NCBI GenBank assembly: GCA_934376955.1
Contig: CAKRPJ010000001.1
Span: 21,396-85,395 of the forward strand
Length of the DNA: 64,000 nt
Direction: 5' to 3'
Source: an uncultured Lachnospiraceae bacterium
GTDB lineage: Bacteria; Bacillota; Clostridia; Lachnospirales; Lachnospiraceae
Part shown: piece after piece, positions 1-47,755 of the stretch
Layout: every line of letters begins with the position of its first letter
How positions within the stretch are numbered: the first letter of the stretch is position 1
Notes under the pieces: generated by a model
Told to the model about the DNA's origin: nothing
Database searches by the model: none
Seen by the model: the letters and a program-made list of their open reading frames with translations, nothing else
Translations under genes and position numbers: made by a program

Positions 1-1246
1 TATTTTTTATGATACCTGCGCCCTGCTCAATATGGGCGCACATGTTGTCGGTCGCCCATTTATTATCTCCGTCCAAACCCTGCTGGAGCTGGAATCCATC
101 AAAACCAGCCGCGCCAAAGATGAATCCGTTCGTTATCGTGCCCGCCAAATGACTCACTATCTCGATAGCACCCATGATTCCGACTTTTATCATGTCTCCA
201 ATGCTACCGATTATCTGAACGATGATGCCTGCCCGTTTCGCAGCACACTGCCCAACACCCCGGATTCCATCATCATTTATGCGGCCTGGAAAGCATACAG
301 CCAAAACCACGATATGATCTTCTGCACGGATGATCTCTGCTGCAAGCACCTGGCCTCTTCTCTTGCCCACCTGCCCGTCTGTTCTTCCAAGGATCTTCTC
401 CCTCGCCAAAGCTATACCGGCTTTCTGGAGGTCACTCCAACCAATGAGCAATACGCTGCCCTCTATGAACAGCCGGAACGAAATACCTTCGGCCTTATCT
501 CCAATCAATATCTTATCGCTCACAGCCCCGCAGACAGCTCCGTACAGGCGTTTAAGTGGGCAGACGGTAAATATGTCGCGGTGGATTATAAGCCCTTCAA
601 AACGCAGGCATTTGGCGCTGTCAGGGCCAAGGATAAAGATATCTACCAGATGCTCGCCTTTGATAGCCTTTTACATAACCAAATCACCATGTTGTGCGGT
701 CCTGCCGGTACTGGCAAAAGCTATCTGGCTCTGGCTCACATGCTCAAGCTGCTGGAAACCCATAAGATTGATAAAATCATCGTGTTCACCAACCCCTGCG
801 CCACATCCGGCGCTGCCCGTCTTGGTTTTTACCCCGGCACCCGCGATGAAAAGCTGCTTGACAGCCAAATCGGCAACATGCTCGGCGCGAAACTCGGCGA
901 TACCATGGAACTCCAGCGCTATATTGACGCCAACAAAATTCAGCTTCTCCCCTTCTCGGACCTGCGCGGCTTTGATACCACCGGCATGAACTGCGCCGTC
1001 TATATTACCGAGGCTCAGAACCTTGATATTGAAATGATGCGGCTTGCTCTTCAGCGTATCGGCGAAGATTCTATCTGTATCATTGATGGTGATTATGACG
1101 CCCAGGTCGATCTCGATATCTACTCTGGTGATAACAACGGTATGCGCCGCCTTTCCCAGGTCTTCCGCGGTCAGGATTTCTATGGCGAGGTCAAGCTCCA
1201 AAAAATCTACCGTTCCCGTATCGCCGCACTTGCACAGGAGATGTAA
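1..1246 (+). CDS. phoH: PhoH-like ATPase with N-terminal PIN domain (YlaK/PhoL-type); 5' end runs off the window (frame continues from nt 2, IFYDTCALL = PIN start)
   Basis: Walker A CGPAGTGKSYLALA and PhoH-like downstream motifs. N-terminal PIN-like segment starts before the first ATG. Confidence 0.85.
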   Translation, partial: IFYDTCALLNMGAHVVGRPFIISVQTLLELESIKTSRAKDESVRYRARQMTHYLDSTHDSDFYHVSNATDYLNDDACPFRSTLPNTPDSIIIYAAWKAYSQNHDMIFCTDDLCCKHLASSLAHLPVCSSKDLLPRQSYTGFLEVTPTNEQYAALYEQPERNTFGLISNQYLIAHSPADSSVQAFKWADGKYVAVDYKPFKTQAFGAVRAKDKDIYQMLAFDSLLHNQITMLCGPAGTGKSYLALAHMLKLLETHKIDKIIVFTNPCATSGAARLGFYPGTRDEKLLDSQIGNMLGAKLGDTMELQRYIDANKIQLLPFSDLRGFDTTGMNCAVYITEAQNLDIEMMRLALQRIGEDSICIIDGDYDAQVDLDIYSGDNNGMRRLSQVFRGQDFYGEVKLQKIYRSRIAALAQEM

Positions 1247-2976: not shown

Positions 2977-3432
2977 TTAGTTCAGGCCAAAATCAGCTAA
3001 CAACGGGTTCTTCAACAGCATCCCCACAATCACATACCGGTAAGATTTCACACTGCCGTCATAATAAAGGGTTCCTCGTATCCTCTGCTTTTTCACCAGT
3101 CCGGCCATGAACTCTGCCTGCTCTTTTGTAAAGTACAAAGAAACCTGCGGGTAGTTCTTGTCATCCAGCCGCGTTGTAATGTGCCGGTTGATTTCCAGTT
3201 CTGTCGGCAGCACATAGCTTTCTTCCAGGTGCGGCATCAAAGCCCGGTATTCTTTGGTATCTTTCATCACGCAGCGGTCGGCACCCACCGCCATCATCCT
3301 GCCAAGCTCTTCCTGCAACAGCCGGTTTGCCACGGTTCCAATGCGGGTATCTTCAACCTCGGCCTCGTCGTTCAGCACCTCGCGTACACGCATACTCAGC
3401 CGCAGGTTGATTTTCACTTCCTTTGCCATCAC
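2977..3432 (-). CDS. ribbon-helix-helix (CopG/ParG-like) DNA-binding protein with C-terminal extension, translationally coupled to parB
   Basis: N-terminus KINLRLSMRVREVLNDEA is RHH-like. Its ATG overlaps the parB stop (ATGA). Confidence 0.6.
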   Translation of the reverse strand: MMAKEVKINLRLSMRVREVLNDEAEVEDTRIGTVANRLLQEELGRMMAVGADRCVMKDTKEYRALMPHLEESYVLPTELEINRHITTRLDDKNYPQVSLYFTKEQAEFMAGLVKKQRIRGTLYYDGSVKSYRYVIVGMLLKNPLLADFGLN

Positions 3433-4619
3433 TTAACCGTCTCCAGCAGCTCTTTCAACTTCGCAGCTTTTTCAATCAGCTCTGTCAGCGTCTTAATGTC
3501 TTCTGTCCGCTGCTCCTGGCTCATCTTTTTCAGTCCTCTCTTATATGCCGGCGTTGCAATCTTCTTGCCAATCTTACCGGCCAGCGGCTGTAAAGTTTTC
3601 TGAACAAATGTTTTGGTTTCGGCTTTCTTCTCAGCAGTTTCAATCTCGCGTTCAAGTGCAGCCTGTTTTTCGGTTTCAGCAGGCTTTTCGGCCGCCATCT
3701 TTGTTTCAAGTGCGGCCACGCTTGTTTCAAAACTTTGTAATACCCGCTCCAGCCTCTCCTCGCGTTCTTCTGTCGAGTCTCCGTTCCAGGCATCGTCCAA
3801 TCCCTGCTGGGTATCATTGCGGATTCTGTCTCGGTCTTCTTCGTTCACACAGTTAATCGCAAACAATCTATTGTACAAACTCAAAAGTTCCTGTTGCTGT
3901 TTCTCTTCAAATTTGATCAATCTGTCGCATTCTGAGCGTTTCAGCTTTTTGTCATCCAGCAGTTTCAGCAGTCCTTTATTCAGCTCGTTTTCCAGGCGCA
4001 AATCTCTATCAATCATTTTCCCACTTGCGGCACTGATTTCTTTCAAGGCTTTCTTGGCCTCGGTCTGGTTCATGTTATATGGTTCTTCTTGTAAACACTC
4101 AATAAATTCAGCTGATGCCTTGCGCCGGATCATTTCATCCCCAAAACCACCGCGCACCTGCAGGTTAGCGCTGTACAAAATAACTTTCTTTTCATTGTGG
4201 GATAGGGGAGTGGTAACTACATTACAGTTCTTGGCCGCATTCCATGTCGCGTCCTGTTCCTGCAGCAGCATCAATGCTCGGTATCTCCGCTCGCCAGAAA
4301 GCAAAACATACACCGTCTTACCATCTTCCTGCTCAGGGAACACAACCAGGTTGTGCAGCAGGCCATTGCGCTTAATGTCTTCGGCTAATATTTCAATATC
4401 TTCTCCGTTGTCATTCTGACGGAAAATCTCGTTGTCCGGGTTCAGTCGGATGTCTGCCAGGCTGATATCCTTATTTTCAAACTCAATGGTCTTATTGCCA
4501 ACAATCTTTCCAACCAGGGCACGGCCGGCATCGTTATCGTTCACTTCTTTTGCTGCACTGCTGGTAGGAATGTTCAGTTTCTTTTCATTGCCTTTCTTCG
4601 GCTTTGATTTCAAACCCAT
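3429..4619 (-). CDS. parB: ParB-like partition protein (ParB/Srx N-terminal domain)
   Basis: GERRYRA motif in ...VLLSGERRYRALML. Likely start is the internal ATG at 4619, with RBS AAGGAGGA inside the parA 3' end; the ORF-table start is 4649. Confidence 0.85.
   Translation of the reverse strand: MGLKSKPKKGNEKKLNIPTSSAAKEVNDNDAGRALVGKIVGNKTIEFENKDISLADIRLNPDNEIFRQNDNGEDIEILAEDIKRNGLLHNLVVFPEQEDGKTVYVLLSGERRYRALMLLQEQDATWNAAKNCNVVTTPLSHNEKKVILYSANLQVRGGFGDEMIRRKASAEFIECLQEEPYNMNQTEAKKALKEISAASGKMIDRDLRLENELNKGLLKLLDDKKLKRSECDRLIKFEEKQQQELLSLYNRLFAINCVNEEDRDRIRNDTQQGLDDAWNGDSTEEREERLERVLQSFETSVAALETKMAAEKPAETEKQAALEREIETAEKKAETKTFVQKTLQPLAGKIGKKIATPAYKRGLKKMSQEQRTEDIKTLTELIEKAAKLKELLETVK
3876..3900. 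repeat. 25-bp repeat CAAACTCAAAAGTTCCTGTTGCTGT, copy 1, inside the parB coding sequence (putative parS/centromere site)
   Basis: Exact 25-mer shared with two copies upstream of parA. Contains an imperfect palindrome AACTcaaaAGTT. Confidence 0.6.
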
Positions 4620-4620
4620 C

Positions 4621-5475
4621 TCACTTTTCCTCCTTGTCCAGTTTTTCAAGCCGCTGTTTCAGCTCTTTATAAGCTGCCACATAGCTCTTGCCAATCGGTT
4701 GTGTTTTGGCAGAATAACATACCGGCACACATCTTCTCACCGATGTCTTCACGGCCAAAGCGCTGGGTATCTCAGTCTTGAACAGGGTAGGGCCAAGCAC
4801 TCTCTGACATTCTTCCCGCGTCTCTCTCGTGGCCGCACCCTTGTCCACCATGGTCAAAATCACGCCGATTCCTTTCAGGTTCGTCTTTGGGTTCTTGCGC
4901 AGCTCATTGCAAATGGAATAAGTTCTAAATGCTGAATCCTCAGAAAACGAATCGCACATCATCGGGATCAATACATAATCCGCTGCCACCAATGCGTTTG
5001 AAAGGATCATACTGTCACGGGTCGGCTGGGTATCTACAATGATATAATCATAGTTCTCCCGCACTTGGTCCAAAAAGTATAGCAAAAAGTCGGCTGTAGA
5101 TTCCAACCGTCTTGGGTCGCCCACATCATACTGCTGCGCATCAGCCAACAGGTCCGGCAGCCTCTTGTTGATCCGCGGTGTCTGGCTGCTTGCCGGGATC
5201 ATATCAACATTCTCATACTCTGTCCCCACAATATACTCTTTCGTGGAGGTGTACTTGAACCCGTCAAACATATCGTACAGCGCATTGCGGGAATAAGCAT
5301 TGCTTGTAATCGTATTGCCGCCGCTCAATGCAAAGGTCAAGTTGCCCTGCGGGTCGGTATCTACGCACAAAACCTTTTTTCCTTCATCCCCCATTAGGTA
5401 AGCAAGGTTAGAAGCCGTAACCGTCTTACCAGAGCCGCCTTTTTCAATCGCAATCGTAATAATTTTTGCTGCCAT
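4621..5475 (-). CDS. parA: ParA/Soj-family partition ATPase
   Basis: Deviant Walker A IAIEKGGSGKT. Size and downstream motifs fit ParA. Confidence 0.9.
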   Translation of the reverse strand: MAAKIITIAIEKGGSGKTVTASNLAYLMGDEGKKVLCVDTDPQGNLTFALSGGNTITSNAYSRNALYDMFDGFKYTSTKEYIVGTEYENVDMIPASSQTPRINKRLPDLLADAQQYDVGDPRRLESTADFLLYFLDQVRENYDYIIVDTQPTRDSMILSNALVAADYVLIPMMCDSFSEDSAFRTYSICNELRKNPKTNLKGIGVILTMVDKGAATRETREECQRVLGPTLFKTEIPSALAVKTSVRRCVPVCYSAKTQPIGKSYVAAYKELKQRLEKLDKEEK

Positions 5476-5642: not shown

Positions 5643-7196
5643 TTATTCTTCAAATGTTGTTTCATCCAGCTGAAACATCGGCTCTTTGCCGTCCTGTCCC
5701 ATCCGCCGTTTCCCGCCTTCAATGATCGTGGCGGAATTTTCTACAATGTCGCTGTACACCACCGTGCGGTAATACTGCGCAGATTTCTTTTCCACATCCT
5801 GCCTCAGCATCACGCTAAACTTCTCCAGTTCACCCAACGCCCAGCTTTTCAGCCCGTGGTTGTTCTGGATGATTCCGTTCAGCGCTTCCAGTGTTTCTTC
5901 AGCCTGGTCTTGTTTGTTCTGGTTGGTCAATATCTTGGCTGCATAAGTAAACACATTTGCCAAAACATTCCGCTCTTCTACGGTCAGCTCCTTCTTGTAG
6001 CCCGCATAGCCAGCCCGGTCTTCTATCTCGCTCCGCGCCTTGCGGAACGTCATTCCCATCACAGCCGGGGGCAGGGGAGAGACCTCTCCGGTTTCAGCCG
6101 CCAACACAGCTTGTTTCTTCGCCTTTTGTTTGCGTGCCACCTCCTGATCGCTGCGCTGGTTCGCGCTCAAAAACGCCCGTACCTTCTCCATCTCTTTGCG
6201 TGATTTGTACTTGATAAAGATATACAGATGAGTGTATTTCCGCACGCCCTTGGTTCGCACCGGCTCATAGTCAAACCACAGGTCTGTCATCTCATTGATC
6301 TCATTTTTTACCAGCTTCAAAACATTGCGTTCAAAGTCTGAAAAATTCGGGTACTTTTCTGTCAATGGTTTTTCGCGGTCATACTTGTTATCCACATCGG
6401 CTTTTTTGCGGTTCATGCCGCGCTCTTCTTTGGTCGGTACAGACAGCAGGTTTTTGAAATCATCAATGCCAAACTTTTTGTACTTGTATCCACGCAGCTG
6501 GTTCCGCTTTGCGGGGAACATCCCCAGCACCTCGTCCGTCACCGGCTCAAACACCAGTCCATTGGCGTATTCGTAGTCCCGGTTTCCATTATCATAAGAT
6601 AAAATAATTTCATACACCCGCATGGAATAGGTGCTCTGCATCATCAGCAGGTATTCAATGCTGTAAGATGTATAATTGCTTGTCAGCTGTGCAATATCTT
6701 TCCAAATGTCCTCATTGAACCGCATACTGATGGTTTTGCCCTCAGTATCAATGATCGAACCTTTGCGTACCCAGCTCATGCTCTTGTACTTGGTTGGGGC
6801 AATCGGTACCCAAAATGTCCGGTTCTCCAAATTTTCAATCGTGTGCTGCAAATATGCCACATAGGCCGGCTTTTCCGCATTCACGCCTGTCAGCTTTGAA
6901 AAGTCGCTGAACGTAATCGTGTAATACTTCGAAGCATCCGTGTCATTTTTCTGGTCGATCTTGGAAAGCAGCATGAACAAAATTTTCTGCTCGTTGCGCG
7001 GCAGGGAATACTTGGTCTTCTGGATCAGGTCATTGCTCTTGGTGATGTAAGAGCCAACGGCAAAAGGGGAGCCGGTCTTCTTTTCCTGCTCCTTTTTCGC
7101 CTTAACCTCTTCGTCCGTCATCACCTCTCCGGTAATCACCGTTCCTGTGCCTGCACGGTTTACTTTTTGGTCTTTCATTATTCTGTTCGCCCGCAT
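5643..7196 (-). CDS. rep: Rep_3-family (RepB-type, iteron-binding) replication initiator
   Basis: ...SYSIEYLLMMQSTYSMRVYEIIL... and ...FSDFERNVLKLVKNEINEMTDLWFDYEPVRTKGVRKYTHLYIFI match the Rep_3 core signature. The iteron field lies immediately upstream. Confidence 0.85.
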   Translation of the reverse strand: MRANRIMKDQKVNRAGTGTVITGEVMTDEEVKAKKEQEKKTGSPFAVGSYITKSNDLIQKTKYSLPRNEQKILFMLLSKIDQKNDTDASKYYTITFSDFSKLTGVNAEKPAYVAYLQHTIENLENRTFWVPIAPTKYKSMSWVRKGSIIDTEGKTISMRFNEDIWKDIAQLTSNYTSYSIEYLLMMQSTYSMRVYEIILSYDNGNRDYEYANGLVFEPVTDEVLGMFPAKRNQLRGYKYKKFGIDDFKNLLSVPTKEERGMNRKKADVDNKYDREKPLTEKYPNFSDFERNVLKLVKNEINEMTDLWFDYEPVRTKGVRKYTHLYIFIKYKSRKEMEKVRAFLSANQRSDQEVARKQKAKKQAVLAAETGEVSPLPPAVMGMTFRKARSEIEDRAGYAGYKKELTVEERNVLANVFTYAAKILTNQNKQDQAEETLEALNGIIQNNHGLKSWALGELEKFSVMLRQDVEKKSAQYYRTVVYSDIVENSATIIEGGKRRMGQDGKEPMFQLDETTFEE

Positions 7197-8215: not shown

Positions 8216-8560
8216 TTGGGTATAACTTTGTGCAACCTGCCTTTGGAAATAACCAGAAAAGTCGTAAACGTAGATGGAACCGATTTGTCAAAAATTCGTT
8301 CGCGCATAAGCGGAACAGTAAATAAAAACTCTAGAACCGGGATAAACGGTGTTGCGCTTACCAAAAAAGGCACCTACAAAGCATATATTAACTTTAAGCA
8401 TAAACGCATTCACCTTGGCTTTTTCACCAATCTAAAAGACGCAGCCGCTGCCAGAAAAGAAGCCGAAGAAATTCTTTACAATAAATTTTTAGACGATAAC
8501 GCCGGTTGGGAACAGCGCCTGGCAGACGCAATGGCCGAATACAAAAAGAACAAGAAATAA
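8216..8560 (+). CDS. stand-alone AP2-domain DNA-binding protein (start uncertain, TTG in table)
   Basis: GINGVALTKKGTYKAYINFKHKRIHLGFFTNLKDAAAARKEAE resembles the AP2/integrase-type DNA-binding domain common in phage HNH nucleases. Confidence 0.55.
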   Translation: MGITLCNLPLEITRKVVNVDGTDLSKIRSRISGTVNKNSRTGINGVALTKKGTYKAYINFKHKRIHLGFFTNLKDAAAARKEAEEILYNKFLDDNAGWEQRLADAMAEYKKNKK

Positions 8561-8598: not shown

Positions 8599-8703
8599 GG
8601 AACCCGATAAAATCTTCAAAACCTCCTTGACATATGACATAAAATGTCGTATCCTATAACCAAAGGAACGACATTAAACGTCATACAGATAGGAGGCTTT
8701 CTT

Positions 8704-9210
8704 ATGGCTTTAACTACAGAACAAGTTTTTGCAATGGGTATTCTCTATAATCAACTAACCACAGCAGTTTATGGTGACGATGGTCCAAAAGCAAACAGCT
8801 TCCAAAACGCCACCATGTATCCGTTTTTGGAAATTACCAAGCTGATTCTTCGTGCCCGTTCTGAACGTCGTATCTCTCCAGAGCTGGATCGCCTGATTGC
8901 CCAAACATATTCAACCCTTACCGAAGAAGACGTTCAGAGCGGGTTTAGCAGCATTCTTCCCGTTGAACTGCAAGGTGCCTTTGCTCTTGGTTATTATCAT
9001 GGCCAGGTCGAAAAGTATTCGGATATCAAGCCCATCGGTCTCAAAGCCATGCGTGCCCGCGCTAATATGACTGTCCAACAGGCAGCAGATAAACTCGGTA
9101 TATCCGCCCGCCAATACCAACGTATTGAATCTGGCGAAAGCAAACCTACTGTTCAGGCAGCACAAACTCTTGCCTCGCTGTTTCAATGCTCTGTCAATGA
9201 TTTATTTTAA
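8704..9210 (+). CDS. XRE-family helix-turn-helix protein (HTH at the C-terminus, novel N-terminal domain)
   Basis: C-terminus TVQQAADKLGISARQYQRIESGES is an HTH_XRE. RBS AGGAGG 9 nt before the ATG at 8704. Confidence 0.7.
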   Translation: MALTTEQVFAMGILYNQLTTAVYGDDGPKANSFQNATMYPFLEITKLILRARSERRISPELDRLIAQTYSTLTEEDVQSGFSSILPVELQGAFALGYYHGQVEKYSDIKPIGLKAMRARANMTVQQAADKLGISARQYQRIESGESKPTVQAAQTLASLFQCSVNDLF

Positions 9211-9221
9211 GAGGTAGTTTC

Positions 9222-9812
9222 ATGCTTCGTCGCTGCACTCGCTGCGGAAGTTCATTTGAAGGGCAAAAAGAACAGCGCCTATGCCCCTCATGTCGTGAAC
9301 AGGCCGCTCATAAACCACGCATGATATCTCATGTTTGTAAGTCGTGTGGTGCTACTTTTACCGGTGGTCCTCGTGCATCTTTCTGCCCAGAATGTAAGGC
9401 GGAACGTGATAAGCAGGCTGTAAAAAAATGTCGGAACCTTGCTAAAAACAAGACCACTCGCCAAATTGGATCTACCGATATCTGTCAGCGGTGTGGCAAG
9501 CCTTATATTGTAAAAGGTGGCCTTCAAAAATATTGTCCAGAATGCGCCCCGATCTCCTTAAAAGAAAAAACCGAGCCGTTAAAACGTGCCTGGGCTGCCA
9601 ATTACCGTGAACAAAACCCAGACCACAAAAAGAACATGCAGAAAAACGGAACAATTTGTGTTGTCTGCGGAAAAACTTTTGCTGCAGTAGATCGTAGTAA
9701 TGCTTGTTCTCCTGAATGTTTAGCAATTCTTAAAAAACAACAGCAATACCATAAGGACATAAAACGTGGGCGTTATAAAAAAATATCAAACACAAAAGGA
9801 GAACCATCATGA
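9222..9812 (+). CDS. protein with four tandem CxxC...CxxC zinc-ribbon units
   Basis: Four units of C-x2-C-G-x(10-13)-C-(P/S)-E-C. RBS GAGG. Confidence 0.6.
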   Translation: MLRRCTRCGSSFEGQKEQRLCPSCREQAAHKPRMISHVCKSCGATFTGGPRASFCPECKAERDKQAVKKCRNLAKNKTTRQIGSTDICQRCGKPYIVKGGLQKYCPECAPISLKEKTEPLKRAWAANYREQNPDHKKNMQKNGTICVVCGKTFAAVDRSNACSPECLAILKKQQQYHKDIKRGRYKKISNTKGEPS

Positions 9813-10237
9813 TAACTGAAATTATTGTAGGGGTTCTTGCCTGTACCCGTAGAACCTCGGAACATGGCCCCGTCACAACAACCTATTTTACCTTTGTGTC
9901 AAATGATCCGTATCAGGCTCACCGTCTTCCGGCTGGCTGGGTTCTTCAAGGTCAAAAACCATCCGGTGTCCCCTGTAAAAAACTCGTCACCATCGAACTG
10001 CCAGATTATATTCATGATGCCAATAGCGATTTTGGCACTTACTATATTTCTGAATATTCCACCAAAGACGGCAACGCAAACAGGGTTTTCTTTTCCTGTG
10101 ATGTTATCCCCGTTCTGGACGGCTTTGAACCCGCAATCAACTCCGCCATTCAAACCATCAAGATCTCCACACCAACCCCATCCGGCAAGCGCGAAGATCT
10201 TCCTGCCAAAGTTCTTTCTGTTTCTGAACTGTATTGA
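9809..10237 (+). CDS. hypothetical protein (142 aa), start overlaps the previous stop (ATGA)
   Basis: Translational coupling. No recognisable motif. Confidence 0.5.
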   Translation: MITEIIVGVLACTRRTSEHGPVTTTYFTFVSNDPYQAHRLPAGWVLQGQKPSGVPCKKLVTIELPDYIHDANSDFGTYYISEYSTKDGNANRVFFSCDVIPVLDGFEPAINSAIQTIKISTPTPSGKREDLPAKVLSVSELY

Positions 10238-10258
10238 TACTTCCAACCTGCTAAAAAA

Positions 10259-10301
10259 TAGGGAGCACCCAAGGTTCCAAACCAAAGGTACTCCCTATTC
10301 C
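10259..10301 (+). terminator. stem AATAGGGAG...CTCCCTATT with a large loop after the + strand regulatory operon
   Basis: 9-bp inverted repeat followed by a T-containing tract. Confidence 0.35.
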
Positions 10302-10515
10302 TGTTTGTATAATTCTTTGCTGTTTTTACTCAAGCGTAAAATTTACTTGTGATCCAACGACTCTTTATGGTATACTATTTTCCAGAGGATTGAAGCTCCG
10401 CTGAATTTCACCCAACTTTATAAGCGCTTAGGCGGCCACCTCCCACTAGCCGGAAGGCTGAATGGAGGTTTAATCATTTTCGCCTTTCGGCAATCTTGTT
10501 GTCGGAGGTGATGTC

Positions 10516-10611
10516 ATGAATTCTATTATAGATGTGCTTGCAATCGTAAGCTGCATCGGTACATGGACTGGCATTTTTGTGGCCATTTATTTTGGTCGTA
10601 AAAAGAAATGA
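10516..10611 (+). CDS. 31-aa hydrophobic peptide MNSIIDVLAIVSCIGTWTGIFVAIYFGRKKK (type I toxin-like or membrane peptide)
   Basis: GGAGG 7 nt upstream of the ATG. Single TM helix plus KKK tail. Sits in a 400-bp non-coding stretch between convergent genes. Not in the ORF table because it is under 60 aa. Confidence 0.4.
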   Translation: MNSIIDVLAIVSCIGTWTGIFVAIYFGRKKK

Positions 10612-10762
10612 GGCTACCTAACTAGCACTTAGGCGGCCTCATCTGAACTGGGTACATTGTCCAAGATGTATTTGGTTCATTTGCAGCTAACTGAGGTATT
10701 CGCTTATTAAGAGCTTCAATCCTCTACTTGTATTATATACCATGGGTGGCAAGCTGTCAACC

Positions 10763-11137
10763 TTAACGCTTAAACAAAAACTCTTGTATATCGTCAAATG
10801 CTCGCTGCATCTGCTCCACATTGTCGCCGTTCAGGTTGTGCCCCAGCTGTGCAAATTCCGCCCGCAGCAGCATGTTAATGCTTTCATCCAGGCTATTCAG
10901 GTGCTTCTTCACACCCTCCAACTGTTTGTCAAACGTGTCGCAGCGCCCTTCCACCGTTTTCAGCCGCCCTTCAATCTTGTCCATCCGGGCATCCTGGTCT
11001 TTGTTTGGCTTTTTCAAAAAGTTGTTGAACTTAACCACCACGGCAATCGCAGCCGAAATACTAACCAACGCCCCACAAACTGAAAGCATCATCGTCAGTA
11101 TGTCCTGCGCCGTAAATGTAAATACCGGGTTAGGCAT
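10763..11137 (-). CDS. membrane-anchored coiled-coil protein, last gene of the lysis cassette
   Basis: N-terminal TM (LSVCGALVSISAAIAVVV) then a heptad-rich region. Confidence 0.5.
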   Translation of the reverse strand: MPNPVFTFTAQDILTMMLSVCGALVSISAAIAVVVKFNNFLKKPNKDQDARMDKIEGRLKTVEGRCDTFDKQLEGVKKHLNSLDESINMLLRAEFAQLGHNLNGDNVEQMQRAFDDIQEFLFKR

Positions 11138-11486
11138 CTGCGTTCACCTTCTCTCCGGCAGCAGCTTCACCCGCCTTCATCTGCTCGTAAGCCGCCTGGG
11201 CAATCGCACGCGCCTGCTCCTCTGTAATGGTAACGCCGGCCTGCTTGGCCACTTCCATAATCAGTTCTGCAGCACGCCTGTTCTTTTCCTCGCCGGAAAT
11301 ATCATTAAAATACTGCTTAATATATTTACAGGCGCTTAACCCCCACTGCATCAACAGCGGATAGCCGCTCAACAGGTTCAGCGCTTTATTTATTGTCTCC
11401 TGGGCGTTCGGCATCACATATTTGCCGACCATAAAAGCAATCACGCAAACCAGGCCCATCACAATATATACAATTCCCTGTTCCAT
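11130..11486 (-). CDS. putative holin (LL-H-like: N-terminal TM, charged C-terminal tail)
   Basis: TM IVYIVMGLVCVIAFMVG. C-terminus GVTITEEQARAIAQAAYEQMKAG resembles LL-H-family holins. RBS GGAGG. Confidence 0.5.
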   Translation of the reverse strand: MEQGIVYIVMGLVCVIAFMVGKYVMPNAQETINKALNLLSGYPLLMQWGLSACKYIKQYFNDISGEEKNRRAAELIMEVAKQAGVTITEEQARAIAQAAYEQMKAGEAAAGEKVNADA

Positions 11487-11488
11487 AC

Positions 11489-11791
11489 CTAACCTCCAAT
11501 CTCTTCCGTGTCACTTGTCTCATCAATCGGCGTAAAAATTTCATCACCAGGGGGCGCATTGTTACCCTCTGTTTTTTCTTCTTCCGCTACTTTTTCCCTC
11601 ACCTTAATCCAGGCGTTACACAAATTCTCTGCACTCATTGCCGCAAACAGCCCAATGTTAAAAGACGATTCCGGTAACTGTCCGGTCCTAAAACACAGGA
11701 TCATGTAAACAATCGCGTAAACAATCGTTGCGCCCATCGTAAAAACAATAATCTTTTTGCTGAACCTCATCAGGCTCCAGTTTTCCTTCAT
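11489..11791 (-). CDS. small 2-TM membrane protein (holin-like), start at the internal ATG
   Basis: Two hydrophobic helices. RBS AGGTGA before the ATG at 11791. Confidence 0.45.
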   Translation of the reverse strand: MKENWSLMRFSKKIIVFTMGATIVYAIVYMILCFRTGQLPESSFNIGLFAAMSAENLCNAWIKVREKVAEEEKTEGNNAPPGDEIFTPIDETSDTEEIGG

Positions 11792-11815: not shown

Positions 11816-12568
11816 TCAGGTATGGCTCTTCACCGCTTTTTGGCTGATATAACCATAAACCGTTTTGAACCAGCCGTTCACGACCGTCTCATACCCAATG
11901 CAAACAGGCTTGCCGGTCTTGGCATCCGGGCTGCTGATCACCCCAACGGACTGGTACTGCATTCCGGCACCCTTGCGCACATTCCATTTGCCGTTGTTCA
12001 GGGTAATGGCTTTTGTCACAGTCTTTTTCACTGCCGGTTCAACCTTCGGCTCCTCAGCCGCTTCCTGCTTGTCCACCTGTACACTGTGCTGGTTTGCATT
12101 GGCCCACAAAATCACACCGCGGCTGGCCGGCTTAAAGTCATCATCCAGCCAACATAGCGGGTTCTCACGCACACCTTTCCAGCGCACCTCAAAGTGCAAA
12201 TGGGCACCAAAACAGTTGCCGGTCTGGCCGCTGTAGCCAATCACTTCGCCGGTTTTCACCTTCTGTCCAGCTTTCACTGTGATAGAATTCAAATGAGCAT
12301 ACAACGTTTCCAGCTTGCCGCCTTTATACGCCGTATGCTCAATCTTTACCATATTGCCATAACTGTTGGTGTCACCCTGGGTCACTCGCCCATTCCAATG
12401 GTAAACCACGCGCACCGTTCCATCTTCCGCCGCAAACACCGGTGTTCCCACCAAAGCGCGAAGGTCGATTGCCCTGTGCAGCGCCCCACTGTTATATTTC
12501 CAGCCAGCCGTAATCACATGCTGCGTCAACGGCCACCCAAAACATACTTCTCCATTCTTCAGCCGCAT
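11816..12568 (-). CDS. M23 (LytM-type) peptidase, putative endolysin
   Basis: GYSGQTGNCFGAHLHFEVRW is the M23 HxH region. RBS AAGGAGG before the ATG at 12568. Confidence 0.8.
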   Translation of the reverse strand: MRLKNGEVCFGWPLTQHVITAGWKYNSGALHRAIDLRALVGTPVFAAEDGTVRVVYHWNGRVTQGDTNSYGNMVKIEHTAYKGGKLETLYAHLNSITVKAGQKVKTGEVIGYSGQTGNCFGAHLHFEVRWKGVRENPLCWLDDDFKPASRGVILWANANQHSVQVDKQEAAEEPKVEPAVKKTVTKAITLNNGKWNVRKGAGMQYQSVGVISSPDAKTGKPVCIGYETVVNGWFKTVYGYISQKAVKSHT

Positions 12569-12579
12569 CTTTATCCTCC

Positions 12580-13530
12580 TTATCTTGTTCTCTTCCACAT
12601 ATAAACCACCAGATAGGGCGGCATGTTGTTGTGGGCTGCCCCGGAACCGCCGGAGGCGACTGTTACGGTTTTGGATTCCCAGTTCGGAATACCCCAGCCA
12701 CTTGATTGCGTTTGGACATACGCATCCGCAGAGCTTCCGGTTTTGGAGCGTATTACGTTGCTTCCGTTGGCCACAGACAGCGAATAATTCGGTAGCTCGC
12801 TTTGTGTAAGCTTATGGGTAAATTCACCCCCAGTACCACCTGCGGGATAACTACTGGAAGCACCAAGCAAAAAGCGTTCAGAAATTCTTTCCCAGGTACC
12901 GCCAAACAAAGTTGCTGGGCTTGTGCTGCTTACGCTCATGTAAATGCTGCCAATCGGCCAGGCTGCAAGTTTTGCTTCCGCAATGGCCGCCTTCACCGCC
13001 GCCGGTGTTGCCGCAATACCACCATTGGTCGAACTCGTTGAACTGGTCGAATCACTCAATTTCACACCGCCCAAAGTCGAAGCATTACCTGTCGGCAGTG
13101 TATATTTCGTATCTGTTGTCGGCGGTGTATACCCCAAAGCATTTGTCACATTCGCCTTTGTCAAACTAATCGTGCCGGAATTCTCCGTAATGTTACTCCC
13201 GATTTTTACACCACCCAAAGTCCAAGCACTCGCGGTTGGCAGTGTGTACTTGGTATCAGTCGTAGGTGGCGTATAACCCAGTGCATTTGTCACGTTAGTC
13301 TTACTAAGGCTGATCGTACCGCTGCTCACCGTAATATTGCTGCCAATCTTTACACCACCCAGGGTTGAACCTGTCGCCGCAGGCAGCGTATAAGTCGATC
13401 CACTACTTGCAGGTGTCATGTAAATCTGGTTTGCATTCAAAGTGCCTGCATTCTTGGCACTGTCATATTGGCTCTGTGTTAGGTAGTTAATTACTAAACT
13501 ATCTAGCTTTGTATTTGTCGCCATAATCAT
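12580..13530 (-). CDS. tail fibre protein with three tandem ~45-aa repeats and a C-terminal tail-collar-like domain
   Basis: Three copies of GGVKIGSNIT..SGTISL..NVTNALGYTPPTTDTKYTLP. C-terminus WPIGSIYMS...LFGGTWE resembles the collar motif. Confidence 0.7.
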   Translation of the reverse strand: MIMATNTKLDSLVINYLTQSQYDSAKNAGTLNANQIYMTPASSGSTYTLPAATGSTLGGVKIGSNITVSSGTISLSKTNVTNALGYTPPTTDTKYTLPTASAWTLGGVKIGSNITENSGTISLTKANVTNALGYTPPTTDTKYTLPTGNASTLGGVKLSDSTSSTSSTNGGIAATPAAVKAAIAEAKLAAWPIGSIYMSVSSTSPATLFGGTWERISERFLLGASSSYPAGGTGGEFTHKLTQSELPNYSLSVANGSNVIRSKTGSSADAYVQTQSSGWGIPNWESKTVTVASGGSGAAHNNMPPYLVVYMWKRTR

Positions 13531-21078: not shown

Positions 21079-24000
21079 TTACACGCTGAACATCACGCGC
21101 ACGCCATGCTGCTCATTCGGGGTAACATAGCTGTAAATCTGGCCGTCTGCCGCAACCTGCAAAAAGTAATCTGCATACTGAACATTCGGGCTGCGTGTCC
21201 AATAAGTGGTGGCCGCGCCATCATCGTCATAGCAGATTCGGCTCTGATTATCCGTCATGTAACTGATCGTTGTACCTTCATAAATATACGGCTCACTGTT
21301 CATGCTGGGGTTCAGCTCATATGCAGCCGGTATAAAGAAGTAACAATCCGCCGTCACAATTTCCTTGGATGTTCCGCCCGCACTGGATGTCACTTTTACC
21401 TGCTGGATCAACTGCTGCCATCCAATCGGCAAGGCATTCGGCAGCCGCTTGTCCAGGTAGGTGCGCAGCGTTGCTGCGGGCCAACCACCATTGTTGTGAT
21501 AGCTGCTGGTAATCGGCATCTTGCGTGCCAGCGTATTTTTCGCTAAAAACGTCATTGCGCAGCGCTTGTTTGTGTTATCGCTTAAATAAAACTGCTTAAA
21601 TCCGCACATCTCATATTCGCGGGTTTCATGCGGCCATGCAGCCAGCTTCCGGCAGGCATTGTCGCCCAGGTCTGCATACCAAACTTTCGCCCAGTACACA
21701 TCACCCTTGGCAAACCGTTCATATTCCCCGTCATCTGCCTTGGCACAACCAAACACCAGCGTTGCATTGGTCTGTGTAATTCGTCCACGGTTAATCTCGG
21801 TGTAAACAATGTCGTCACCGTAAATGTTAGCCGTATACACATGCAGGTTGTTTTCGCCCTTCTTGTGGCGCATTACCACCATGTCACGGGTTCCAACTGT
21901 GGCAGCTGTTGCGCTTTCGGTGCCCCAACTGATCTTGGCTCCATTATTGTTCCAAATGCGGATACCGTTCATGCCGTTGGTTTCAAAACACTGCATCAGC
22001 ACAGCATTGGCCGTATCGGTTGTGGTCATCCGGTAATCTACCGCCAGCACCCAGTCCCGGTCTTCCTTCAACAGCTGCACACCAGTGTCCACATAGTTGG
22101 TGCCATCAAAGGTCTTTTTCTCGTTAATCAAAACCTTCTCTTCAATGTCAGAGTAGCTAAAGTCGTTGCCCATCGTAATGGTCACAGCGTCCTTGGGGCT
22201 AACCACCTTATTCTCCACACCAACCTTTTTCATTGCGTAAATCTCGACCGGGCGCAAACTGCCAATCTCTTTGCCGTCAAAGTAACCAGAGGTGTATTCG
22301 CAGCTGTCATATACCGCATTGATGTCCTTGTCTCCGTTCACATATCCGCCCTTGTCCCAATGGTCAAACAGGTAGAACTTATAGGCACCTTCCTCCGCCG
22401 TGTAGGTCGGGGTATCGCCTTCGTACAACACCATGCTGCCATAGGGGGCAACTGTTTTCTGTTTCTCCGCACCATTGTTCAGGTAGCGCACGGTATACTT
22501 CCGTACACTCTCGGTATATTTGGCCGTTACGGTCTGGTTGGTAAATACTGTAACAAACTCTGTGTCCCATCCAGCATAGGTAAAGTCAGTGCTCACCGTG
22601 CTCTTCTTGGTCGGCTTCGGGATCGGCTTCTCCGCACGGGTCACAGGGTCAACAGCCTTACCACCCTTGTCAATGTACTGCACATCCAAAACTGTGTGCT
22701 CGTCATCATCATTCACAAAGGTCCAGGTAAACTGTTCCACCAGCGTATTGTAGCTGATCTTCAAATCCGGCCACTGTGCATTAAATTCTGCCAGCTTCTT
22801 TTCACGCATAATGGGCACATGCACCTTGCCCTCCAGTACAGAGTGCTCAGTGTTATAGCCGTTCTCATCCAGGCCGGTCATCGTGTACAGCCGGTCAAGC
22901 AGCGCTGTATCCTCGCATTCCCAATCAAGGCCAGTCAGGCGCACGCGGTTCAAACCTGTGCATTTTTCCAACATAGCTTTCAGGTCAATGGTCGGGCAGC
23001 TTTCCACAACCAGTGTGGTCAGGTTCTCATAGCCGTCAATCTTCAAATCGGTCAGGTGGTTCAGGCTCTGTGCCGTCAGGCTTGCAATCGCAGGCAGTTC
23101 AGCCTTTTCAATCTTGCCGCCCTTGGCAAACGCCACACCGGTAATACCGCTGCCGCCGGCATAAAAATCGGTCAGGTTTACACATCCCGCCAAGCTGATG
23201 GATTTCTTCAGGTTTGGCACATTCTGCAAATTCAGGTGTTCCAGCAGCGTATTGTTACCAACTGCAAAGTCGGTCAGGTTTGTGTTGCGGTAGCCTTCGG
23301 TGCCGTTGCCAACCTTCAAGTCGGTCAATTTCGCACCATGGCTAAAATCAACATACCCAGGGTAAAATCCACTAATGTCGCCAATGCTCTGTATCAGGCT
23401 GGCATTGTAAACATAAACCTCGGTATCGTTCATGGCTGCAATCGGGCACTCAATCGTGTAGGTCTGGCCGCGCTTGCCGCGCATTTTTACCGGGTTGGAG
23501 CCATACAAAACACTCACATAGGTATCTGCATATGGGCGGATATGGAACGTACCGTCCGGCTGCACACCTGTCCAGTTGGTCGGGGTATAGCCGCGGATCG
23601 TCATATCATCAGCCGTGCAGGTCGTGCCGCTATACTTGCTCGCAATATACTTTTCCTGGTATTTCTGGTACTGGCGGCGCTGGTGACGCTTGTTGCCGTG
23701 CATCATCGGCAGGTAACTGGTCGTTCCATTGTCTTCATAGGTGCGGAAATATTTGCGCCGCATGTCCATGATCCAAAGCTTTTCGGGCTTCACATCCTGG
23801 TACGCCTCAATCTTGCGCAAAATACGGTTTGCACTCCAGGCCAAAGCGCTCTCACGGTTCAGGTACATCTTCTGCAAGTCATCTGCAAAAAGATCTCGTA
23901 CCTTGCACCACAGCTTGCTGTCTGCCGCGTTAAACACGCTCTTGGTGCCAATGGTGTCGGTGTCCTCATAGCCGTAAGTCAGTGTCAATCCGCCCTCGTT

Positions 24001-27000
24001 GTCGTTGCCCTGGCAGGTATCGTTGTCGTAATCCATGCAAAAATCCCAATGGATCAGATCTTCTGTGTGGGGGAACACATTCTTGGCGCGGTTATCCACC
24101 ATTGTGTGGCGCTCAGTGAACAGATAAAAGAACAGCACACTGTCCTTGATAAAGTGGTCCTCAAAATGGGTCTTAAACTCTTCATCATCTGCATTTACTA
24201 CCCAGGTCAGCAAGCTCTGCCAGGCATTCTTTGCCGCCTGTGTTTCTTCCTCAGTGCAGTTTTTGCTAATATAGCGAAACTCAAAGCTGTGGTCGCCGTC
24301 CCAGGTTTCCTGGCTCAGATCATCACTCAAAAAGCGGGTCTGGGCATCGGTGTTGTTATCAATCTCAACAATAACTTCCTTGTGGTTTTCGGGGTCCATG
24401 CCCTGGGTATCATTGTTCTTCTTGCTGTTGCCAATATCACCGCAGGCGTAAAAATGCCACTGGCCGTCCTTAAACACCGTTGCGTTCTCCACGTCCGTTT
24501 CCTGAATAAACACCACGCACGGGTAAAACGCCATCGTATCGCGCACCTTCGGGTTATCTTTCTTTGCCTGGCGGGTATATGGGTTAAACGTGTTGTAATC
24601 ATCTGCAATGCAGGCGTTGTTTGCGTTTTCAGAACTTGCAATGTTTACCTTGATATTAAAATATTTCTCCGGGATACTGTCCTTAGTCAAGGTATAGGTG
24701 CTGCCGGTACTATCATCGCCAAACGTAAATCCACCGGAACAGTTAATATCAATGTTTCGGCCGCTCTCGCCATACGCATTGGAGCTGGTGCCCTGGCCTT
24801 TATGGCTGCCGGTCGCGGTCCAGTTATCCTCCACAGCGCGTCCGTTCTTGTAAATCTGCTGAATGGTGGTATTAAAAACCTCATTCTTTTTGCCGGTCGT
24901 AAAGGTCGGGGCACTGATCTTGATAATGCGCAAATCCGGGCACTTCTCGGCCAAAAGGTCAGCATCCAGTTCGCCGCTTACGTTGGTAATATCGTTGCGG
25001 TTATAGCGTTCAATCATCAGCTCGGCGTTCTTGGCATCCGCAATAAAGTTGTCCAGGATCTCATCGTCCGTCAGTTCCATGCCGTAGGTCTTCATGCGGT
25101 ATACCTGCACATCACAGTCCGCAGAGCCAATCGTAATGCCAACCGGGCTTGCCTGTGTAAAGTTGTCGCTTGCATCGTACAGTTCCACCTTACAGGGGAT
25201 ACCGTCGCACCATAGCACCATCTCTTTATACTTGCTGTCCGGCAAAATATTGAACTCAAACTCCAAAAAGTCATCTTCGCAAATCGGCAGCTCAATGCGG
25301 TTCTGCTGGCTGGTCAAGGTAATCTTCTGTGCCTGTACCGTCAAACCAACGTTGCCATTTGCGCAGGTTAGCGCCGTAGCATCGTAGTCTCGCACATTGG
25401 TGGTTTTAAACACCAGCTTAAAGTTCTTACCCTTCTTTTTGGCATCGTCCGCAAACAGCTTATAATCCAGCGTGGCGGTAGTTCCGGCTTTCACGCAAAA
25501 GTAAGTATCGCCGTCCTCATCAATCTGGTAGCCGCCATTGCTCCAGTCAAAGTTGTCGCTTACAGTCATTGCGGTATTGCCATCAGTCCACAGGCGGTTT
25601 TCGTCCGCATTGGTTCGGCCAGCCGGGTTAAAGTCAAACATCAGGTTGGTTTTCACCGGCTCAATGTTAATACCCAGCTCGGTAATTTTTACATTGATGG
25701 TCTTTACCGTCTCGCCGCAGGTAATGGTCAGCACATGGCTGCCAATCTCGCTGCTCTTGTACGTCCAGGTCTGTTTGGTGCGTCCCACCGTTAGCTTGCT
25801 GGCAACAATGCCATCCACAGCCAGGGTCACATTGGTGTTGCTGCTGGCCGGATCATACACGGTATAGCTGATCGCAACATTGCTGTACTGTTTAGCACTG
25901 TAATCCAGCACGGCACAACTGATAATCGGGGTGTTATTGCCCTCTTCCACCCACATAATATCGTGGCGCAGGGTGTTGCTTGTCACCTGTTTGCCATTGA
26001 TCTCCGCCGTCATGCTCACTTCCAGCAGGTGGCTGCCGTGCTTCTGGGTGGGCAAATTGTAGGTCATCTGGCGGCCTGTCACTGCAGTGCTTGTTCCACC
26101 AATCGCCTTGCCATCCAACTTAAAGCTGATGTTTTTGGCAATATTGCCATACGGAGTAAACCGGTAAGTTACTTCGCCGGAATAAAAAAGAGAGTCATCA
26201 AAAATGCTCTCCAAATAAAACTCAACAACATTAACCGACCAGTTCTTGCTGCCCACACTGCCCATGCTGTCCGTAACCTGCAGCCGCACAGTGTTGTCAC
26301 CGCTGTGCAAGTATTGCGTCACATCAAAGGTGTTCTTGCCCTGGATGATGGTCGTGGTTGCCACCTTGGTGTTGCCCACATACCAGTTGCCAGTCGCATT
26401 GCCGGTGTCATCGCCAGCATTGTCCACACTCGTAAACTTAAAGCCGATCAATGCACTGTCACCCTGAACTACCGTCAGGCTGCTGTCACCAATTCGTTCA
26501 ATGGTAATGGTGCTGGTTGCCTCACCGCCACCACCGCCACCACCTTTAATGGTAACAACAGTCTTGGTTGTGCCGTCTTCCAACAGGCTCAAATGACCGT
26601 CATCACTGGTGTAAGTAATGTCGTACTCATGGCCGTTGCTGGGCTTAATATCTTTGATCTTTTCCTGGATTTCTGCAATGTCGCTGTTGGCCGTATCCAC
26701 ACTGCCCTGCAAAGCTGCCACGGTATTCTTGGTCACAGTCAAATCATTGGTAAATCCATCCAGAGCAGTTTTGTCCGCCTTATCAGCCAGCAGTTTGTTG
26801 GTTGCTTCCTTATTATAATAATCACTCTGCAAGGTGTTCGGCAGGTCGCCTACACTATCCTGCAAAGCTTTCACAGCTTCGTTGTTGCTGGTCTTGTATT
26901 CATCCAGCGCTGTACTTACCGGGTCTACCGCCGCGCTGATCTTAGCATCCACCGTCTTGCCATATGCGGTCGTCCACTCTGCGCTGGGGTCGGTGCTCAA

Positions 27001-47340: not shown

Positions 47341-47755
47341 CCGTTACTGACCGTAAACAATACGGCGGGTAGTCATTTCTGGCTACCTCTCATGTTTCAA
47401 GTATTAGGTTATAGCATGAGTTCGGACTGTATATTACCGATGTCTTATCGGAATTTACTTCAACATACCTGTTGCCAAGTATATCCTGCAGTCTCTAGGG
47501 ATTTATAGAATTTAACGATTTTATCTTCAACTTGTTCCGCAGTTAAAGTGTATGGCAATCTTAACAACGGAATTTTATTATCTTTTCGTTTGTTAGAGAT
47601 TGTTCCTTTAATAAACTGACCTTTGTTATTTCTTGTACACATAAAAAAATAACCTCCCTATTGCCATATAGGAAGTTATCGTTAAATTCCATATCTTTCC
47701 TCGGTCTTGGGTGCCTCCACCCTTTAACCGATATAGTAAATTTGGGGCAATGTTG
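47341..47755 (-). other. intervening sequence of ~410 nt splitting the tape measure gene (group I intron-like, boundaries approximate)
   Basis: The conserved core is interrupted between ...FNEVGK(Q) and (S)LNNYAISS. The insert contains stop codons and a free-standing small ORF with its own RBS. Confidence 0.5.
47460..47642 (-). CDS. 60-aa ORF inside the intervening sequence; degenerate HNH homing-endonuclease-like N-terminal fragment
   Basis: NNKGQFIKGTISNKRK resembles the GQF.KGH.PWNKG motif of phage HNH endonucleases. RBS GGGAGG. Confidence 0.4.
   Translation of the reverse strand: MCTRNNKGQFIKGTISNKRKDNKIPLLRLPYTLTAEQVEDKIVKFYKSLETAGYTWQQVC

Follow-up and report, generated by a model that had tools for sequence, protein, structure and literature searches.

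Type I toxin-antitoxin (TA) modules are hard to find because their toxins are tiny and diverge fast, and the families that have been characterised come mostly from a few model organisms. The known toxins follow a stereotype of fewer than 60 residues, a hydrophobic composition with a putative transmembrane (TM) helix and, usually, cationic C-terminal residues (PMC8309996). Translation of their mRNAs is repressed through pairing of the Shine-Dalgarno (SD) sequence with an anti-SD and through a long-distance interaction between the 5' and 3' ends (PMC8594479). In the Gram-positive pattern recorded in T1TAdb, found in the TxpA/RatA and BsrE-G-H families, the antisense RNA is placed on the 3' side and extends across the end of the open reading frame (ORF) (PMC8594479). 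The antisense RNA SR4 combines RNase III-mediated decay with tighter sequestration of the SD (PMC8309996, PMC8594479). Type I modules of Clostridioides difficile prophages have been shown to stabilise plasmids and prophages, and in Clostridia such cassettes are used for counter-selection and for plasmid stabilisation (PMC7699646). A locus of comparable layout lies in a stretch of 64,000 nucleotides (nt) from an uncultured Lachnospiraceae bacterium (contig CAKRPJ010000001.1, positions 21,396 to 85,395), hereafter the window. The original prediction for this DNA had proposed a repeat-flanked ORF in the window as a type I TA candidate. That proposal has been strengthened by convergent promoters, an antisense terminator, SD sequestration, purifying selection and occurrence in two genomic contexts, all read from the sequence, and positions 10347-10760 are probably an autonomous type I TA-like module carried by a phage-plasmid.

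The cassette is a self-contained unit of about 414 bp lying between convergent gene blocks, of which the plus-strand block ends at 10237 and the minus-strand block at 10763. The case for it is built on its anatomy, its conservation, a coding signature, covariation and a pattern of presence and absence, all of which are observed. The ORF (10516-10611, plus strand) encodes the 31-residue peptide MNSIIDVLAIVSCIGTWTGIFVAIYFGRKKK, a putative toxin with one hydrophobic helix and an RKKK tail. The GGAGG of its SD, GGAGGTG (10504-10510), ends 7 nt before the ATG; the SD is complementary to 10437-10446 and is predicted to be base-paired. The ORF between convergent blocks, with its strong GGAGG ribosome-binding site, TM helix and KKK tail, is thus as first described. 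The Kyte-Doolittle mean over 19 residues reaches 2.03, which is TM-grade, and the peptide is free of proline. No other ORF in the 64 kb has a strong SD together with a basic tail and a stretch of TM-grade hydrophobicity. With fewer than 60 residues, a TM helix and a cationic C-terminus, the peptide has the properties by which small type I toxins are recognised (PMC8309996).

Exact-pattern scans of IMG/VR and of metagenome contigs, mostly labelled human gut, and a search that used the mis-called 60-residue homologue P0002 as the query for sister-lineage loci, recovered 52 intact copies of the cassette in gut metagenome contigs, and 24 unique cassettes were aligned. They form two deep lineages, the window type and the L104 type (the sister lineage), which occur in unrelated contexts. 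The ORF is intact in all 24, free of stop codons and frameshifts, and its product occurs in 8 variants of 30-31 residues, every one of which carries the tail (R/S/G)KKK. Within the ORF, the lineages differ by a one-codon in-frame indel. The ratio of nonsynonymous to synonymous polymorphism (pN/pS) is 0.33 for the whole ORF and 0.21 over codons 13-31. Differences number 8, 3 and 11 at the first, second and third codon positions, the second being the least changed, and the synonymous excess gives a Fisher p of about 0.003-0.005. On this alignment, these differences are coding signatures and indicate purifying selection. Likewise, 24 of 24 cassettes have the same SD at the same 7-nt distance from the ATG, the same anti-SD and the same decoy GGAGGT, and the bases within the SD-ATG spacer vary although its length is fixed.

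Sequence searches place the peptide outside the curated families. Against Pfam, NCBIfam, PHROGs and PADLOC it belongs to no family, the only matches being weak ones to TM-like PHROGs (E >= 0.007), and neither Pfam nor NCBIfam yields a family at E <= 1 or E <= 10. The resemblance to Fst/Ldr/TisB-class toxins that had been suggested did not hold, since no match to Fst, Ldr, TisB or any other curated family was found. Among 1.84 billion representatives searched with phmmer, a single diverged relative was recovered, MDVNVVVAIIGCIGTWFGVFVAIYFG(G/S)KKK, at 69-73% identity, with P0003 as the 30-residue homologue. The top phmmer match, the 599-residue repetitive protein P0001, was rejected as a compositional artefact with no aligned stretch, and tblastn of the peptide against GenBank phages gave chance-level matches only. 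The peptide family appears narrow and confined to two lineages. Its best reading is a new sequence family of type I TA, set apart by means of curated family models.

A scan for sigma70-type consensus promoters found two that converge on the cassette. The predicted mRNA promoter, P(+) (10347-10376, plus strand), has the hexamers TTGTGA and TG-extended TATACT separated by an 18-nt spacer; it is weak and agrees with the consensus at 9 of 12 positions. The predicted antisense promoter, P(-) (10732-10760, minus strand), has TTGACA, a 17-nt spacer and TATAAT, a perfect match at 12 of 12 positions. In the L104 type, P(+) reads TTGCAC-18-TATAAT, so that hexamers and spacing are common to both lineages, and the P(+) spacer and the DNA upstream have diverged. 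P(-) is kept as TTGACA or TTGACG, 17 nt and TATAAT in all 52 loci with an intact ORF; its spacers diverge within and between lineages, and three quite different ones exist.

From P(-), a putative antitoxin RNA of ~125 nt (10600-10725, minus strand) is predicted that is the complement of the final ORF codons and of the 3' untranslated region (UTR) of the mRNA, overlapping the ORF by ~12 nt, to 10611. This 3'-side overlap, which would run from 10725 to ~10600 and across the end of the ORF at 10611, is of the kind that marks TxpA/RatA and BsrG (PMC8594479). The predicted intrinsic terminator (10600-10642, minus strand) consists of a stem, 10642-10629 / 10621-10608, followed by TTCTTTTT (10607-10600), and its T-run is present on the minus strand only, with none on the plus strand. 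A strict consensus terminator scan called neither this terminator nor a flanking hairpin at 10257-10299, so both are a reading of sequence and folds. Terminator pair 232/256 shows a compensatory change from G-C to A-U, and the sister lineage has strengthened two weak pairs of this stem. The best-conserved parts of the cassette across lineages are the first ~35 nt of the antisense RNA and its terminator. At the level of sequence signals, the antisense RNA therefore appears to have a promoter and a terminator of its own, as in other type I systems. A 38-residue minus-strand ORF (10470-10586) was considered as a gene and rejected: it lacks an SD and lies beyond the antisense terminator, its C-terminus is shifted between lineages by a 2-nt UTR indel, and frame mapping places its substitutions mostly at its second codon position.

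The repeats noted originally would take on a role within this arrangement. The exact 15-nt inverted repeat AGAGGATTGAAGCTC was confirmed, and its arms lie at 10384-10398 and 10711-10725, 1-2 nt from the positions first given (10382-10396 and 10710-10724), with 312 nt between them. These are the only two matches in the 64 kb when up to 2 mismatches are allowed, a number reached in 0 of 100 shuffles, and inverted repeats of at least 15 nt arose in 5 of 1000 dinucleotide shuffles of the 421-nt region. The direct repeats also exist, and are longer than had been noted (10424-10438 and 10624-10638): they span 20 nt at 85% identity, 10423-10442 and 10624-10643, around the exact 11-nt core CTTAGGCGGCC. 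The second copy is contained in the antisense terminator. Direct repeats of at least 11 nt were obtained in 21 of 1000 such shuffles, and alone are only modestly unlikely. Each kind of repeat is unusual without being overwhelming, and the weight of the case comes from their position and conservation. Each inverted-repeat arm begins 7 nt after a -10 element, at the predicted +1 of its promoter, and because of this the predicted mRNA and antisense RNA share their first 15 nt.

The RNA fold supplies a further line of evidence. The left arm (10384-10398, plus strand) corresponds to nt 1-15 of the predicted mRNA and forms the 5' strand of a closing helix, H1; the 3' strand of the long-range 5'-3' pairing (10691-10725, plus strand) comprises CTGAGGTATTCGCTTATTAA and the right arm (10711-10725). 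The plus-strand RNA 10384-10728 folds at -135.6 kcal/mol (z = -7.8 versus shuffles), with the 15-bp helix made by the inverted repeat joining both ends and further 5'-3' pairing beside it. The 5' UTR (10384-10515) holds the first direct-repeat copy, the anti-SD CACCTCC (10437-10443), which is complementary to the SD, a small hairpin AGCC-GGAA-GGCT (10448-10459) and the decoy GGAGGT (10464-10469). Further elements of the plus strand are a 12-bp hairpin inside the 3' end of the ORF, UUUUUGUGGCCA / UGGUCGUAAAAA (10574-10604), identified by fold and covariation, and a 3'-UTR hairpin with several G-U pairs (10644-10679). The latter forms on the plus strand only, at -9 to -17 kcal/mol versus -1 to -6 on the minus strand in 12 of 12 sequence variants, which argues that the mRNA continues beyond the ORF and includes sequence opposite the antisense RNA. 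Its stems differ between lineages yet still pair, and a 17-nt indel between lineages falls in a predicted loop, between H1 and the next helix. Covariation is found in H1, where pair 6/340 has changed from A-U to G-C and pair 13/333 from C-G to U-G and then U-A (the latter in L139), and in the ORF-internal hairpin of the sister lineage, where pair 200/216 has changed from G-C to U-G or U-A. The U-G combination pairs only on the plus strand, and the compensating change in this hairpin alters residue 28 from R to S or G.

In folding models of five representatives from both lineages, the free mRNA gave a mean probability of 0.00-0.24 that the SD is unpaired, and blocking of the 3' overlap brought this to 0.00. 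Specifically, in the sister lineage the anti-SD of the free mRNA model pairs with GAGGUG in the 3' UTR, and upon blocking of the overlap it is predicted to shift onto the SD, where the unpaired probability falls from 0.22-0.24 to 0.00. The intrinsically repressed mRNA fold that type I toxins possess is thus predicted for the cassette as well. Windowed duplex scans of the antisense RNA against the 5' UTR gave, for the window lineage, a duplex derived from the direct repeats of -34 kcal/mol (shuffles -19 +/- 2.7) that maps to 10414-10437, ~70 nt upstream of the SD. The best such duplex of the sister lineage, at -19.5, equals the shuffle level, and variants such as L050, of the window type, alter one direct-repeat copy while leaving the other unchanged. 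The suggestion that the direct repeats pair as in the pAD1 par locus is hence not supported as a conserved feature: pairing is strong in the window lineage only, and even there the duplex is distant from the SD. As a separate observation, the hairpins at 10448-10459 and 10484-10493 (GCC-TTTC-GGC) are also complementary to each other, so the 5' UTR could alternate between a pair of local hairpins and a single 10-bp helix. The first of them is the only internal piece left in one of the decayed alleles described below (allele B).

The distribution of the cassette indicates that it moves as a unit. Window-type copies are found on contigs of ~84-147 kb and always between the same two genes. The L104 type occurs on recurrent contigs of up to 370-390 kb, adjoining TnpB (an IS605 OrfB), an NYN protein, a Y-family polymerase, a BlaI-like repressor and an Mrr_N protein; its loci include L118 (1155-12495), L113/L114 (on a 389-kb IMG/VR contig) and L128, L139 and L144 (on 370-374-kb contigs). 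One contig with such a TnpB is listed as viral in IMG/VR, and the 370-390-kb carriers could be a megaplasmid, a jumbo phage or a chromosomal island. The two contexts have no neighbouring protein in common, and BLAST homology between them is limited to 10384-10398 and 10419-10737 of the window. Together with the conserved promoter hexamers, this homology suggests a portable unit that runs from promoter to promoter, about 10347-10760. Of two scans of GTDB species-representative genomes, the first found nothing and the second only three chance 19-mer matches, of which the one inspected lay inside a coding region, so that neither yielded a true copy, and a more degenerate back-translated pattern revealed no third lineage in IMG/VR.

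Twelve decayed alleles of the cassette were found in related phage-plasmids, and all of them lack the 5' half of the ORF and P(+), or more. In allele A (loci L077, L004, L024, L065, L082, L074 and L040), ~21 nt replace 10314-10558, which removes P(+), the 5' UTR and the first half of the ORF but spares the antisense RNA, its terminator and P(-). The allele of L101 has the same truncated ORF and additionally lacks the 5' part of the antisense RNA. In allele B (loci L097, L062, L032 and L070), P(-) and the right repeat arm survive along with no more than a 19-nt remnant of the interior. All three kinds retain P(-), in some cases with the -35 changed to TTGATA or CTGACA, and this hexamer is mutated in 5 of 8 ORF-truncated loci versus 0 of 52 intact ones. 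P(-), the right arm and the terminator are intact in 52 of 52 loci with an intact ORF, and among the recovered loci there is no allele that has the toxin ORF without the antisense promoter. This pattern is as expected if the ORF product were harmful in the absence of the antisense RNA, and so points indirectly to a toxin.

From these features we infer the transcripts and their ends, the toxicity of the peptide, its neutralisation and the relative half-lives of the two RNAs, as follows. Transcription from P(+) would start at 10384 and reach ~10725 or beyond, giving an mRNA of at least 340 nt that encodes the membrane peptide. This mRNA would be compact, its first 15 nt paired with the 3' end and its SD buried by the anti-SD or by a local hairpin, and as a consequence it should translate poorly as made. 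The antisense RNA from P(-) would extend over ~125 nt, beginning at 10725 and stopping near 10600, where it has a terminator of its own. Lying wholly inside the 3' part of the mRNA, it may keep the peptide silent by either of two routes. The long duplex could be degraded by an RNase III-type activity, as for bsrG/SR4 and txpA/RatA, or the antisense RNA could open the 5'-3' clamp by displacement and thereby let the anti-SD pair with the SD. After loss of the element, the unstable antisense RNA would be the first to disappear, and damage to the cell by the membrane peptide would in this way stabilise the phage-plasmid. Such post-segregational killing would be the role of the module on a Rep3/ParAB phage-plasmid, and an addiction module makes sense here because the carrier is a phage-plasmid with Rep3, ParA and ParB.

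Several points weigh against this interpretation. The RNAs, the peptide and its toxicity are predictions from sequence alone, and the peptide matches no curated toxin family in Pfam, NCBIfam, PHROGs or PADLOC. The decayed alleles probably derive from 2-4 independent events only. Because there are only two deep lineages, each compensatory change counts as about one event in evolution, and a single alignment served both to derive the consensus structure and to score it. Covariation in the inverted repeat would also be expected if both arms bound one protein. In the window lineage, the SD is predicted to be closed with and without the antisense RNA, and the switch model is therefore weak there. 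Lastly, the strict scan recognised no intrinsic terminator for the plus-strand mRNA, and the 5'-3' helix needs read-through to 10725.

The alternative that fares best, although it is unlikely, is that the ORF is a small membrane-protein 'moron', such as a superinfection-exclusion or membrane-modulating factor made by the prophage-plasmid, whose level is tuned by the convergent antisense RNA. Conservation of the ORF under purifying selection would be expected of such a gene, as would its location downstream of the lysis cassette, a classic moron position, and the lack of a toxin family match. The regulatory anatomy would equally fit antisense control of a harmless gene. However, the module also occurs in the TnpB/Y-family polymerase region, away from phage lysis genes, and so behaves as a selfish, portable unit. 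The perfect antisense promoter set against a weak, SD-occluded sense gene, and the coupling of an intact ORF to P(-) in 52 of 52 loci, point to a product that must be kept off. The size of the peptide, its single TM helix and its KKK tail also fit the toxin stereotype (PMC8309996).

It is improbable that the cassette acts purely at the RNA level, through convergent small RNAs or a structured RNA, with the 31 codons incidental and untranslated. The exceptionally strong predicted structure (z = -7.8) would agree with this explanation, as would the compensatory changes in several helices, including the one inside the ORF that alters residue 28, and the retention of the minus-strand promoter and terminator after the ORF has been lost. 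In contrast, the pN/pS of 0.33 (p about 0.003-0.005), the in-frame indel and the low rate of change at second codon positions are the marks of a coding sequence. The invariant SD with its fixed 7-nt spacing to the ATG and its varying spacer bases, and the absence of stops or frameshifts from all 24 cassettes (0/24), further argue for translation. The RNA also matches no Rfam family.

A third explanation concerns the role of the inverted repeat only and is compatible with a type I TA module: the arms could be a pair of operators for a DNA-binding regulator of both convergent promoters, instead of RNA-pairing sequences. Each arm is situated at the predicted +1 of a promoter, repeat position 6 has changed in both arms as a shared binding site would predict, and a helix-turn-helix (HTH) protein is encoded nearby (8644-9210). 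Nevertheless, this is very unlikely. No neighbouring protein is common to both contexts, and a regulator of this kind would therefore need to be supplied by the host. The arm-specific changes at position 13, to U-G and later U-A in L139, follow the logic of RNA wobble, and 5'-3' pairing is not limited to the repeat but includes further helices.

The least credible proposal, already raised in the original prediction, takes the 15-nt repeats as the ends of a miniature inverted-repeat transposable element (MITE): the exact repeat with arms 312 nt apart, the presence or absence of the cassette among related phage-plasmids and the existence of a second genomic context would suit it, but the conserved unit reaches ~35 nt past each arm and includes both promoters, with the arms inside it at the predicted transcription starts; the repeat is a single pair in the 64-kb window; the cassette matches among 100 loci from the repeat scan are all in the window's own context; the sister-lineage cassette, found by other queries, has divergent arms, whose drift to 13/15 identity preserved RNA pairing; and the comparison of related phages revealed variable presence without clean empty sites, since 'empty' alleles retain one arm and P(-), the 19-nt internal remnant or the 3' half of the ORF.

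The element that carries the cassette in the window is a phage-plasmid, as Rep3, ParA and ParB adjoin phage lysis and tail genes. To the left of the cassette are encoded ParB (3429-4649), ParA (4621-5475) and the Rep3 replication initiator (5643-7196), these three on the minus strand, and also the HTH protein and a zinc-ribbon protein. The phage late region lies to the right, also on the minus strand, and begins with an XhlA-like TM/coiled-coil protein (10763-11137; weak, sub-threshold Pfam/PHROG matches only), an LLH-type holin (11130-11486) and an M23 endolysin (11816-12598); tail-fibre and baseplate proteins are encoded there as well. Contigs of related phage-plasmids reach ~143-147 kb. Neither positions 1-25000 nor the cassette locus matched GenBank phages or PLSDB by blastn or megablast.

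Outside the conserved module, at 10257-10299, is the flanking hairpin, a candidate bidirectional terminator with 20-nt arms that are 80% complementary, followed by TTTTTT on the minus strand and preceded by AAAAAA on the plus strand. It looks like a structure that closes the plus-strand gene block and catches any minus-strand read-through, and it is not common to the sister lineage. An Rfam scan of 9500-11500 (E <= 10) found no family at its gathering score. Sub-threshold, terminator-like matches only (E >= 2, 10252-10333) were returned; those at the hairpin are to terminator-containing small RNA models and lie on the minus strand. No tRNA or tmRNA was found.

Other features of the window include a 114-residue ORF (8216-8560, plus strand) with a PHROG HNH-endonuclease match (E = 2.6e-14) that covers an internal segment only and no Pfam match, which may be a small DNA-binding domain protein. 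A 404-residue fusion of PIN_4 and a PhoH-like ATPase (32-1246, plus strand) is encoded at the window edge. The phage region contains very large minus-strand ORFs at 21079-27957 (2292 residues), 47561-52711 (1716 residues) and 37639-41151 (1170 residues).

If the type I TA reading is true, the cassette represents a new type I TA family from uncultured mobile elements of the human gut, of Firmicute type. A more elaborate version, which is doubtful, would be a new 'mirror-start' type I TA family. In such a family both RNAs would open with the same 15 nt, and the 5' end of the antitoxin would compete with that of the mRNA itself for the 3' tail of the mRNA. The displaced 5'-3' clamp would free the anti-SD to lock the ribosome-binding site and would make the mRNA accessible to decay. 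Addiction would be the function of the module in a widespread, uncultured family of phage-plasmids from the human gut (up to ~147 kb in assemblies), and the toxin-less alleles with an antisense RNA could act as anti-addiction decoys. The identical 5' ends of the RNAs suggest that strand displacement may couple antisense binding at the 3' end to closure of the ribosome-binding site. The allele series, from intact through toxin-truncated with antisense to the promoter-only remnant, is a ready-made genetic experiment, and post-segregational killing is directly testable on a phage-plasmid with Rep3 and ParAB.

Among described systems, plasmid R1 hok/sok and Helicobacter pylori aapA1/IsoA1 resemble the cassette in that the mRNA is inactive through 5'-3' interaction and SD sequestration, as is predicted here (PMC8594479, PMC8309996). 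Both are addiction-type modules, plasmid or chromosomal, and AapA1 has 30 residues. Unlike the cassette, these Gram-negative systems have antisense RNAs that target the 5' leader or the start of the ORF, hok is accompanied by the leader ORF mok, and neither system has sequence similarity to the cassette. The par locus (Fst / RNA I-RNA II) of Enterococcus faecalis pAD1 is a plasmid addiction module with a toxin of ~33 residues, whose convergent RNAs share a terminator hairpin and gain complementarity outside the overlap from DNA repeats (PMC8594479). The peptide does not match Fst at E <= 1 and, having no proline, lacks the APxxxG motif, so that it falls outside Fst/Ldr. In comparison with par, the direct-repeat complementarity lies ~70 nt upstream of the SD and not over the initiation region, and it is absent from the sister lineage. 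Additionally, the Fst/RNAII overlap excludes the ORF (PMC8594479), while the predicted antisense RNA of the cassette overlaps the ORF end.

The closest counterparts are found in Gram-positive prophages. The bsrG/SR4, txpA/RatA, bsrE/SR5 and yonT/SR6 systems from prophage regions of Bacillus subtilis likewise encode a small hydrophobic peptide with a cationic C-terminus (38 residues for BsrG), and their convergent 3'-side antisense RNAs overlap the mRNA 3' end and the ORF end. Homology of the peptide to BsrG, TxpA, BsrE, BsrH or YonT was sought through curated family models, none of which matched, and through the phmmer search, which returned only the two-lineage family. The cassette differs from this group in that its predicted antisense RNA is entirely within the mRNA, both RNAs share a 15-nt start, the mRNA is closed by a 15-bp 5'-3' helix and the host is an uncultured human-gut element, not Bacillus. 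By analogy, the dual mechanism of SR4 may apply to it. CD0977.1-RCd11, CD0956.2-RCd10 and other modules of Clostridioides difficile are also convergent and come from prophages of a gut Firmicute (PMC7699646), but the peptide described here is shorter, at 30-31 residues, and its carrier is a phage-plasmid with Rep3 and ParAB. Overall, the layout of the cassette as predicted matches the Gram-positive 3'-overlap pattern (PMC8309996, PMC8594479, PMC7699646), to which the identical 5' ends of the two predicted RNAs add an unusual twist.

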